Virus record (IMG/VR): IMGVR_UViG_3300009709_000001
Location: 96,001-160,000 of that record
Strand: one strand, 5' to 3'
Source of the DNA: a virus
Lineage: Duplodnaviria; Heunggongvirae; Uroviricota; Caudoviricetes
Length of the DNA: 64,000 bases
The notes beneath the pieces are model-generated. The model was not told the DNA's origin. It made no database searches and saw only the letters and a list, made by a program, of their open reading frames with translations. Within the stretch, counting starts at the first letter, position 1; each line of letters starts with the position of its first letter. The position numbers were made by a program, and so were the translations under genes. This document shows, in pieces, positions 48,387 through 54,829 of the stretch.

Positions 48387-48463
48387 TGGTGCGCCTTGTG
48401 GGATTCGAACCCACGGTCACGGATTTAGAGTCCGCTGCTTTAGGCCGGCTAAGCTAAAAGCGC
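48387..48463 (-). tRNA. amber suppressor tRNA (anticodon CTA)
   Basis: GCGGA-CT-CTA-AA-TCCGT; intact cloverleaf; 4-nt V-loop; A73-CCA. Confidence 0.9.
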
Positions 48464-52188: not shown

Positions 52189-52635
52189 TTAGAACGCAAC
52201 TTTTACGCCAGCCGAAACGGTATTGCCGTTATAAGCATTGACACGTGCCTGACCCTTCTGGTAAGCATAGTCACCAACAAGGGCAACATTCTTGGCGAGT
52301 GGGTACGAAACACCAACACCAAACAAACCAGCATAGCCGTCTGCACCCTTCGAAGGATCGATGTAAGCACCGCCGACTTTAACCGCTACGGTTGCACCAG
52401 CAACCTTGGCCACGTCATAAGAACCGACGAGGCTATAACGATTAGTATTCAGCTTGCCATCTGTGGAACGATCGAATGCAGCTTCTGCACCAAGGGCACC
52501 AAACTTTTCACCGACGGTAACGCCAGCGCTGTTCTTGTTGGTTCCGCCATTGTAGCCAACGCGGGCACCAAAGTCAGCAGCGGAGGCCATGCCAGCGGCA
52601 AGAGCCAGGGTTGCGATTAGAGCAATTTTCTTCAT
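52189..52635 (-). CDS. outer-membrane beta-barrel protein (8-strand OmpA/OmpX-like)
   Basis: signal peptide ending ASA; alternating beta strands; C-terminal GVKVAF. Confidence 0.85.
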   Translation of the reverse strand: MKKIALIATLALAAGMASAADFGARVGYNGGTNKNSAGVTVGEKFGALGAEAAFDRSTDGKLNTNRYSLVGSYDVAKVAGATVAVKVGGAYIDPSKGADGYAGLFGVGVSYPLAKNVALVGDYAYQKGQARVNAYNGNTVSAGVKVAF

Positions 52636-52722: not shown

Positions 52723-53067
52723 TTAAATATCGAATTTTCTACCTTTTGCCAAATTTTCTTTTGAAGGCAAATATTGCAAATTTTCTATGACATGAAGACC
52801 ACTTACAAATTCGCCATTTAGTGGAATAATGTGATCGACATGATATCCGATTGGGCAAGATAGATAAAATCTCTCAATTGTATCTAAATCTGACCATGGC
52901 GGTATTCTTTTTAACTTCGCTGCTCGTTCCTTTGCTGACTTGAGTTTAACCTTTTCAGGATATTTCTCTCGCCATTTTCTGTGGCGATCTTTATTTATCT
53001 TCAGATCATTTAATCGTTTTGCAACGATAGCTTCTTCGGGAGTGTGATACTTTCTTGGTCTCGGCAT
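52723..53067 (-). CDS. HNH endonuclease
   Basis: RAAKL.R.PPW, YHVDHIIPL.G..VSGLHV..NLQ.L...EN..K. Confidence 0.88.
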   Translation of the reverse strand: MPRPRKYHTPEEAIVAKRLNDLKINKDRHRKWREKYPEKVKLKSAKERAAKLKRIPPWSDLDTIERFYLSCPIGYHVDHIIPLNGEFVSGLHVIENLQYLPSKENLAKGRKFDI

Positions 53068-53075
53068 AGGTAAAA

Positions 53076-53387
53076 GAATGGGAGCCGAAACTCCCATTGC
53101 TATTTTGGGTAACAAGGCATAACTGCCCCGGAGTGCTGTTAGGCGAATGCGACTTCGGCGTCTGCGAAAGCAGAGAGGTCGAAAGAAGCAAACTCGGTAG
53201 AAACGTTATTTGCGTTTACTTGGTTTGACGATTAACGATCGTTATTCGTGTTGTCTGCCTTGATACTTGCTACACTGTCGATTTCCGGAGGTCCCCCATC
53301 AAAAACACACAGAATGCGCTTTTGGTGGAGGACAGGGGATTCGAACCCCTTTCCAGCCCAGTTTTCTCTAAGCTTCATACAACAATA
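53076..53387 (-). ncRNA. ssrA: two-piece (circularly permuted) tmRNA
   Basis: acceptor piece with T-arm AGGGG-TTCGAAT-CCCCT ending GTCCTCC-A-CCA (53323) precedes the piece starting GGGGGAC (53297); G3:U70; tag ORF 53213-53139 ANNVSTEFASFDLSAFADAEVAFA*; terminator hairpin. Confidence 0.9.
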
Positions 53388-53425
53388 AAATTCAGGCGTT
53401 TGCCTTAGTCCCTATTATGCACTAC

Positions 53426-54094
53426 TTACCACATGATGTCAAAATTCCCACGCATAACCTGCTTAACACTGCCGGATTTGCCTGTAATGTGGTCTTTTAC
53501 AACATCATCTTGGAAACGATAGGTGCGAATTTTATCGCCCCTCATTCCCGAACCAACTTGCGATTTCCTCTCAACAGCGAGGCTAGCTTTCTTGTCTAAA
53601 TAATTTCCTTTTGTTAACTGTTCGATTAACGCCGCTTTAGCCTCTTCTAAACTGTTAACTCTAGACCTATGTTGAGCTGTGGCAATCTGTCCGGTTGGTA
53701 TATAAGTTATTCTACAAGAATTCTGATGCTTATTGCGATGTTGACCACCTGCACCAGTTCCGCTATACCATTCAATCTTAAAATCTTCATCCCTAAGCGT
53801 TAGTGTCGGAATTTCTGGATCGATAATTGCAACGGTTACGGTACTTGTATGAACTCTACCTTTTCTTTCTGTCGGTGGAATTCGTTGTATACGATGCCCA
53901 CCTGCTTCATTTTCAAGCATAGACAAATCATCGCCGATAACTTCTACAAAAACTTCACCGGCTACAGATTTAACTATGCGATTGATTCAGCCTACTCGAT
54001 CGCAATGCTTTTGATATGCAATTGCAAGATCAGATGCAAACAACTTGCTATCTTCTCCGCCTTCGGCTCCACGAATTTCAATTACTCTTTTCAT
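53426..54094 (-). CDS. RF1-like peptide chain release factor lacking domain 1, with in-frame TGA at codon 36
   Basis: IEIRGAEGG.DS.LFA.DL...Y upstream in the same frame as E.GGHR.QRIPPTE..GRVHTST, GAGGQH.NK and KIRTY; TGA at 53989-53987. Confidence 0.85.
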
Positions 54095-54677
54095 GATTTT
54101 TCCTTTCTTCAACTAGCCATGGTGCGAGTTTATCTAAACACGCATTCCACGATGGCATACTACCTTTCTCAAATCGTACTGTCAGGGCCCACCTGTCAGT
54201 ATCAGACAAATTTATCGAATGATGAAATACAGTACCGATATTAACTAATATCGGCCCTTTATCCTTTGTTTCATCAATAACGATAGCATCATCTTTCTCC
54301 AATTTAAGAAATGGGGTACTTTTTAGTTCACCATGAACGTGTGCGTCTTTCGGTGTAGTAGGAAATTCTATGCCATCGCGTGGTTTATACCAACGCATGA
54401 CATAATCATCACAAAAAATCCAGTTAATCGCTGCTCGAAATTCACCTACAGCACCATCTGTATGGATAGGCTGCACATCGACATAAGGAGCATGATGGAA
54501 AATCGAAGCACGAACTGGATTTAAATTTATGCTTCGAAAAAAATTTATTAGGGACGGATTTAAAATCTCGTCGGCACTATATTGAAATATTGACTGCTGA
54601 CAATCGCCACGAGGCATTACAAAATCATCTCGAAGCGGTGAAACAGGAATATCTAACAGTGCGTAGTGATCGGACAT
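54078..54677 (-). CDS. 2OG-Fe(II)/cupin-like oxygenase
   Basis: PIHTDG....AAINW, LVNIG..HH..N....RW.LT.RF. Confidence 0.65.
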   Translation of the reverse strand: MSDHYALLDIPVSPLRDDFVMPRGDCQQSIFQYSADEILNPSLINFFRSINLNPVRASIFHHAPYVDVQPIHTDGAVGEFRAAINWIFCDDYVMRWYKPRDGIEFPTTPKDAHVHGELKSTPFLKLEKDDAIVIDETKDKGPILVNIGTVFHHSINLSDTDRWALTVRFEKGSMPSWNACLDKLAPWLVEERKNHEKSN

Positions 54678-54829
54678 TGTCCTATTTATGCCATTAAAGA
54701 TGGCATTGCCGGAAGATGACAAATCTTCCTACACGTATTCGAATTTGCGATGCAGCGCAAACCCATGGAAGTGCTAATAACCCCTATCTGTAGTCTGCAA
54801 TGCCAGTTACAGTGTAACAGGTTGCATTT

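Follow-up and report, generated by a model that had tools for sequence, protein, structure and literature searches.

The release-factor locus

The window analyzed here is the whole stretch of 64,000 nucleotides (positions 96,001 to 160,000 of IMG/VR record IMGVR_UViG_3300009709_000001), which belongs to a phage genome of 385,394 bp with direct terminal repeats. On the minus strand of the window a single frame of 222 codons runs from 54094 to 53426, with one internal stop, a TGA at codon 36. The ATG start codon (54094-54092) is preceded at a distance of 7 nt by a Shine-Dalgarno-like AAAGGA (54101-54106), and the frame ends at a true TAA terminator (53426-53428), the codon found at this place in 76 of the 81 loci compared below. 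The initial annotation had described the listed 166-aa open reading frame as only the distal part of the gene, with translation opening at this ATG behind the AAAGGA and a lone internal stop at 53989-53987, and reading of the frame bore this out. Codons 1-35 (53990-54094, minus strand) specify the N-terminal strand and helix of release-factor (RF) domain 2, including the EIRxAEGGxDS...F stretch, as indicated by homology and an AF2 model. The TGA itself (53987-53989, minus strand; context GGC TGA A) occupies an invariant Trp position in the alignments, and codons 37-222 (53429-53986, minus strand) specify what remains of domain 2/4 together with the GGQ domain 3, as indicated by homology and a structure match. 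Within this distal segment, a PPT tripeptide (codons 73-75, 53870-53878, minus strand) aligns where RF1 has its PxT motif for stop-codon recognition, and the GGQ motif of peptidyl-tRNA hydrolysis is present at codons 116-118 (53741-53749, minus strand). No other gene with an RF domain was found in the 385,394-bp genome. The source DNA contig, at 43x depth, showed no variant at the level of contigs rather than reads. A contig from a moss metatranscriptome spans 53848-53998 with the TGA unchanged, although a contig from an RNA library does not prove transcription and stretches that it leaves uncovered carry no meaning.

A permuted (two-piece) tmRNA gene (53048-53415, minus strand) follows 10 nt downstream of the RF gene; it was called by ARAGORN and matched the Rfam models tmRNA_permuted with 81.5 bits and beta_tmRNA with 77 bits. 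The placement of the RF gene directly upstream of tmRNA, which the initial annotation had pointed out, is thus correct for this genome, but as a general link it may not hold. ARAGORN, which may miss permuted tmRNAs, detected a tmRNA in the 3-kb flanks of just 9 of 79 relatives, and adjacency to tmRNA was rejected as a family trait. The RF gene sits inside a tRNA region, and tRNA genes are also present in the flanks of 55 of the 79 relatives. Upstream, an open reading frame of 214 aa on the minus strand (54078-54722), with no Pfam match, overlaps the start of the RF gene by 17 nt (54078-54094), which suggests translational coupling. Just past the tmRNA, a minus-strand gene (52189-52635) encodes a small protein of the outer-membrane beta-barrel or porin-like kind, which carries a signal peptide and matches Porin_4 with 27.8 bits.

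The predicted read-through product resembles RF1 without domain 1

The product translated across the TGA contains the Pfam domains PCRF (residues 4-88, 1.5e-21) and RF-1 (residues 98-202, 3.5e-18), and shows the RF1 fold of domains 2-4. With the NCBIfam RF1 models (NF001859 / TIGR00019) the match runs unbroken over the TGA, placing residues 4-220 on profile positions 107-333 of 347 with an E-value of 9e-54. The RF1 profile score of 182.8 bits compares with 105 bits for the RF2 model; it lies below the equivalog cutoff of 400, and since the match begins at profile position 107 the N-terminal domain 1 of about 105 aa is not represented. Comparison with solved structures using phmmer aligned residues 2-219 with residues 87-314 of Thermotoga RF1 and placed codon 36 on the Trp of its 'GW' pair, in agreement with the earlier proposal that the TGA stands at a Trp-equivalent position. 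Alignments to structures in the PDB begin at RF1 residues 87-112, indicating that domain 1 is absent, and a Pfam search of the neighboring open reading frames gave no informative matches and no separate domain 1.

The AF2 model of the read-through product, built with 38 homologues, reached a pLDDT of 87.5 and superimposed on ribosome-bound RF1 with a TMq of 0.85 and an rmsd of 2.9 Å. In this model, the residues ahead of the TGA form a strand (2-11) and a helix (14-34) of the decoding domain with pLDDT values of 89-96. The residues Pro-73, Pro-74, and Thr-75, as well as the GGQ, are invariant in the 38 homologues and align to the corresponding RF1 motifs, so the PPT tripeptide and intact GGQ noted from the sequence are both upheld, and the stop-recognition elements (PxT, with the Gln and Thr around it) line up with RF1. 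The initial annotation had also likened the absence of domain 1 to that of rescue-type factors. The absence is supported by profile and structure alignments, whereas the likeness is an architectural analogy only, because the product fails the models of both rescue-type families: the match to the PrfH model TIGR03072 is confined to the GGQ domain and scores 36.7 bits against a cutoff of 166.65, and the ArfB model gives 13.4 bits against a cutoff of 100. The gene is thus predicted to encode a 222-aa class-I release factor of the RF1 type, with PPT and GGQ motifs and lacking domain 1.

Conservation of the TGA and selection on both sides

IMG/VR was scanned with peptide patterns that excluded the TGA site, which yielded 253 relatives, of which the best 80 were taken together with the phage's own copy. 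The TGA is present at the aligned codon in all 81 of these viral loci, as well as in every one of the 73 distinct sequences, which are 61-77% identical, and each of the 81 loci contains exactly one internal stop. An ATG or GTG start codon was found in 74 of the 81, and a GGAG-type Shine-Dalgarno sequence precedes it in the 25 relatives listed. Elsewhere in the same RF genes, Trp is encoded by TGG. Synonymous sites are saturated across the 73 distinct sequences (pS about 0.75), and dN/dS calculated from unsaturated pairs was 0.06 ahead of the TGA (codons 1-35) and 0.12 behind it (codons 37-222). Six bacterial-genome relatives are in frame, with 47-59% identity and GC contents of 43-71%, and all six have the TGA; they come from Thalassospira xianhensis MCCC 1A02616, Jiella sp. 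LLJ827, and Gemmobacter caeni DSM 21823, all three cultured Alphaproteobacteria, and from MAGs of Sphingomonas, Sphingobium, and Pseudobdellovibrionaceae. In a FastTree tree, the family of the window forms one clade with a support of 100 (41 rows at <85% identity), all with an in-frame TGA. No near-identical sequence was found among GenBank phages, and the relatives recovered by tblastn were all below 40% identity.

The alignment of homologous phage genes, proposed earlier as a check on read-through, therefore shows a conserved TGA with purifying selection on both sides. Neither of the two observations named as speaking against read-through was made: TGG stands at this codon in none of the 81 viral loci and in none of the 6 bacterial-genome loci that are in frame, and the segment upstream of the TGA is constrained, with its start codon and Shine-Dalgarno sequence conserved. 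As judged from these alignments, the conservation of the TGA far exceeds chance, because it holds as the lone stop in every locus and every distinct sequence despite saturation of synonymous sites. An apparent excess of synonymous conservation around the TGA was dropped from consideration, as the statistic is confounded by relatedness and shows a second peak in the variable linker. A conserved stop with constraint on either side and no other route by which the two parts could be joined is the pattern expected of programmed read-through, and these genes show it.

Stop-codon usage, structure, and restart at the TGA

The frame of the RF gene is open under code 4, and database proteins of 222-225 aa with W at this position exist, although only from contigs of about 1-6 kb, an origin consistent with gene-calling software having adopted code 4 for short contigs. 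Recoding of TGA, together with selenocysteine insertion, sequencing error, and decay of a pseudogene, was considered as a cause of the internal stop. Open reading frames of at least 100 aa in code 11 cover 86% of the genome, TGA terminates 155 of 400 long open reading frames, and frames extended past a TGA are no longer than those extended past TAA or TAG. The pattern of a TGA-recoded (code 4) phage, in which TGA stands in frame in many genes and does not serve as a terminator, was thus not seen. ARAGORN found 54 tRNAs and one tmRNA in the genome; no tRNA(UCA) is among these 55 tRNA and tmRNA genes, nor was one found when regions of 120-240 kb from five relatives were scanned. We rejected a genome-wide TGA=Trp code since TGA behaves as an ordinary stop, with extensions like those of TAA and TAG, and no tRNA(UCA) accompanies it.

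The region after the UGA has no conserved RNA structure, with 0 consensus pairs in RNAalifold across 33 diverse sequences, and the single-sequence fold has a z-score of -1.4. This argues against a SECIS element, the hairpin that would be expected just after the UGA of a selenoprotein gene, as well as against a structured stimulator, and the residue aligned with the UGA in solved RF1 structures is Trp. The 43x depth of the source without a variant, and the presence of the TGA in all 81 loci under purifying selection, argue against error and decay. Taken together, conservation, stop usage, and missing structure rule out recent mutation, error, recoding, and selenocysteine in practice, and the probability left to any of these causes is negligible.

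On long contigs the same protein clusters hold pieces of 35 aa and 166-172 aa, and over all the gene calls considered the pieces measure 35 aa and 164-186 aa. These calls, and the high conservation of the N-terminal part, would fit a split gene or functional stub, in which the real products are a 35-aa peptide and a C-terminal protein with its own initiation, and the UGA is a true terminator. However, no conserved restart codon was found: the first in-frame ATG, GTG, or TTG lies 4-148 codons past the TGA (median 50), and the first ATG past the TGA is usually beyond the GGQ. The conserved codons 37-57 would be lost from such a protein, the N-terminal strand and helix are integral to the domain as modeled, and sister lineages, described below, use a +1 frameshift to connect these parts. 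We consider a split gene very improbable.

The codon before the TGA is GGN or AGC, and homology continues in frame 0. Across the 73 distinct sequences, the base following the TGA is A in 51, G in 16, C in 6, and T in 0, and according to PMC5289835 a U at the +4 position strengthens termination. The absence of U at +4 supports read-through, as do the homology, the fold, and the Trp alignment, all of which run straight across the stop. A Shine-Dalgarno-like 5-mer that could act as a stimulator was found in 0 of 73 sequences of the window's family. Lacking both this element and a conserved structure, the site may support read-through at basal efficiency only.

Trp tRNA genes of the phage and its relatives

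The phage carries three tRNA-Trp(CCA) genes. One of them, outside the window at 168093-168168 of the phage genome (G000; L088:8093-8168), has a G27.A43 mismatch at the top of the anticodon stem that leaves 4 bp, in contrast to the normal stem of 5 bp in its paralog at L088:8262-8338. A gene with a CCA anticodon at 174004-174092 of the phage genome (L088:14004-14092) encodes a tRNA of 89 nt whose variable arm is long and which contains a C31.A39 mismatch; such a body is unusual for a tRNA-Trp.

These genes raise the possibility of a timer instead of an RF2 sensor, in which the UGA is read efficiently once a read-through-prone phage tRNA-Trp(CCA) has accumulated, so that the factor would appear only after the tRNA genes are expressed. 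The location of the RF gene within a tRNA region is compatible with such a timer, as are the tRNA genes in the flanks of most relatives and the unpaired 27:43 position of one of the three tRNAs. Fakih et al. [quoted passage not shown] Relatives that keep the TGA do not, however, share the unpaired 27:43: the six tRNA-Trp(CCA) genes found in the regions examined from four of them (G001, G002, G004, and G005) all have 5-bp stems, and the fifth (G003) keeps the TGA with no tRNA-Trp in the 120-kb region examined. The 4-bp-stem tRNA-Trp was rejected as a conserved partner of the RF gene since it is found only in this genome, and we regard the timer as unlikely.

Other putative recoding devices in sister lineages

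A second scan of IMG/VR with the family alignment had at least 544 hits and gave about 80 more diverse loci, most of which need a +1 shift at '...RRGL-stop'. These sister lineages of short RF1-type genes have, at the same spot, a prfB-like +1 frameshift cassette consisting of a Shine-Dalgarno-like element, CUU, and then UGA, UAG, or rarely UAA, as in the example CGGAGGGGTCTT TGA G, where a prfB-like Shine-Dalgarno sequence, CUU, and the stop follow each other. Among 148 distinct sequences, a single in-frame TGA is present in 78 and a double one in 7, a +1 shift is needed at TGA in 44, at TAG in 10, and at TAA in 1, an in-frame TAG occurs in 1, and 7 are uninterrupted. The +1 class has CTT at 55 of 55 distinct sites and a Shine-Dalgarno-like 5-mer (GGAGG(GG)) at 33 of them, and within this class TGA and TAG are exchanged repeatedly on the FastTree tree. 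The sole in-frame TAG seen (L211, match from 2001; GGA TAT TAG ATG) stands at the gate position. In the one member of the window's family that has TGG, a relative from a Hahella sp. MAG (L247:2001-2664, 55% identical), the Trp codon is TGG, and TCT CTT TAG C follows five codons later and needs a +1 shift. The putative gate is kept even where its form changes, because in this MAG a CTT-TAG lies five codons beyond the TGG.

Short RF1-type genes were also found in four huge phages of 634-735 kb described by Al-Shayeb et al. (LR745206, LR756502, LR756501, and LR756504; L083-L086). They contain one or two in-frame TGAs at other positions ('SI-W-L' and nearby), whereas the genes next to them read without interruption in code 11; further cases came from IMG/VR relatives of one of the four genes. 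Two other loci (L120 and L121, about 2001-2674) have a short RF gene with two in-frame TGAs in which the frame is also lost near the GGQ region, which could be due to a pseudogene, an assembly error, or further recoding.

The frameshift relatives have the same PPT motif whether their stop is UGA, UAG, or UAA. This would fit a broad specificity, in which the phage factor itself recognizes UGA despite its PPT and the internal UGA is a true autoregulatory site, a close parallel to prfB. The recognition elements nevertheless align with RF1, and the product scores 183 bits with the RF1 model against 105 with that of RF2. Moreover, Ito, Uno and Nakamura are said to have put forward in 2000 a tripeptide rule under which a Pro in first place allows only A as the second base. 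Recognition of UGA by the factor itself is, in our judgment, improbable. Since the factor is predicted from its PPT not to read UGA, the arrangement would not be autoregulation in the prfB sense, and its selective logic is inferred.

Discussion

The reading that we consider probable is that the full-length RF is made only by programmed read-through of the UGA at codon 36, with insertion of Trp, and that its synthesis is tied to weak RF2 termination. The comparative evidence thus supports the proposal of the initial annotation that read-through, at times of low RF2 activity, gives the full-length factor. Ribosomes would start at the ATG at 54094 behind the Shine-Dalgarno sequence, translate 35 conserved codons, and reach UGA-A, where host RF2 would compete with near-cognate Trp-tRNA(CCA). 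Termination would release a 35-aa stub, whereas read-through would place the invariant Trp of RF domain 2 and give a complete, foldable factor. Output would be low and would rise when RF2-dependent termination is slow or Trp-tRNA is abundant. The product is expected to terminate at UAA and UAG in the absence of the domain that interacts with RF3 and L11. By taking UAA, and with it UAG, the phage factor could spare RF2 for UGA, and it may set a balance against the phage's own amber-suppressor tRNA (48387-48463). The idea that RF2 is sensed gains indirect support from the prfB-type CUU-UGA cassette at the same place in sister lineages; the flips between UGA and UAG in the frameshift class are not obviously predicted by a pure 'RF2 sensor'.

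Programmed recoding of a release-factor gene is, to our knowledge, a textbook phenomenon that has been described for RF2 alone. The bacterial RF2 gene prfB is autoregulated by a programmed +1 frameshift at a Shine-Dalgarno-like element followed by CUU UGA C. As in prfB, a premature in-frame UGA lies near the 5' end of the phage RF gene, at codon 36 of 222, and the full-length protein would require failed termination; the sister lineages share even the CUU-stop cassette with its Shine-Dalgarno-like GGAGG(GG). Unlike prfB, the phage gene keeps its frame, with neither CUU nor a Shine-Dalgarno-like stimulator, and the UGA takes the place of a Trp codon where domain 2 begins rather than lying in domain 1. 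The phage gene is also of the RF1 type, so that the UGA is not its own codon under the predicted UAA/UAG specificity. The putative phage device would be the equivalent of the prfB frameshift switch, with read-through in place of the shift and on an RF1-type gene.

Leaky UGA codons are also used by phage Q-beta, in which decoding by tRNA-Trp extends the coat protein to A1. The phage RF gene would resemble this system in that a UGA read at low frequency by near-cognate tRNA-Trp gives a needed longer phage protein. The two differ in that Q-beta makes two functional proteins, the longer one by a C-terminal extension, whereas in the RF gene the stop interrupts a single globular domain after 35 codons, at an obligate Trp, and only the read-through product is expected to fold as an RF. 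PrfH (RFH) is a release factor lacking domain 1 that is paired with RtcB, and we know of no recoding in it. In contrast to PrfH, the phage RF keeps RF1-like decoding motifs, and no RtcB neighbor was seen.

Phage genes for RF1 and RF2 have been reported before (PMC7162821; Borges et al.), with no recoding inside them. In the TGA-recoded 'Jade' phages (Borges et al., bioRxiv 10.1101/2021.08.26.457843), a phage RF1 was suggested to take care of termination during the reading of UGA as Trp. The phage studied here likewise encodes an RF1-type factor; however, the 'Jade' RF1 genes are in standard code within a code-change module with tRNA(UCA) and TrpRS, whereas the present genome is not recoded and lacks tRNA(UCA), and it is the RF gene itself that carries the UGA. 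In a survey of >12,000 genomes, Prince et al. 2025 (PMC12421855) considered programmed frameshifting unlikely for prfA and found that TAG never occurs in the prfB motif, and Burroughs and Aravind 2019 mention neither phages nor frameshifting. In the limited set of literature searched, no description of a UGA-gated or frameshift-gated RF1-type gene, or of recoding in a phage RF1, was found.

A broader reading, to which we give about an even chance, is that short RF1-type factors lacking domain 1 form a widespread class in large phages and some bacterial elements. Such factors would nearly always be gated about 35 codons in by interchangeable devices, namely UGA read-through at a Trp codon or a CUU-UGA or CUU-UAG +1 frameshift, which would sense termination capacity and switch on a phage-owned, RF3-independent terminator during infection. 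If this is true, programmed recoding would extend to RF1-type genes, against the current view that confines it to prfB. Databases misrepresent such genes, since callers split or truncate them or use code 4 on short contigs. The site described here would be a naturally occurring UGA read-through site of minimal sequence, lacking both structure and a Shine-Dalgarno element. The conserved UGA gate and the CUU-UGA and CUU-UAG gates at the same site would represent three solutions to one regulatory problem, implying strong selection that ties the dose of the phage terminator to the state of host termination, and they may give a role to some of the translation toolkit carried by huge phages.
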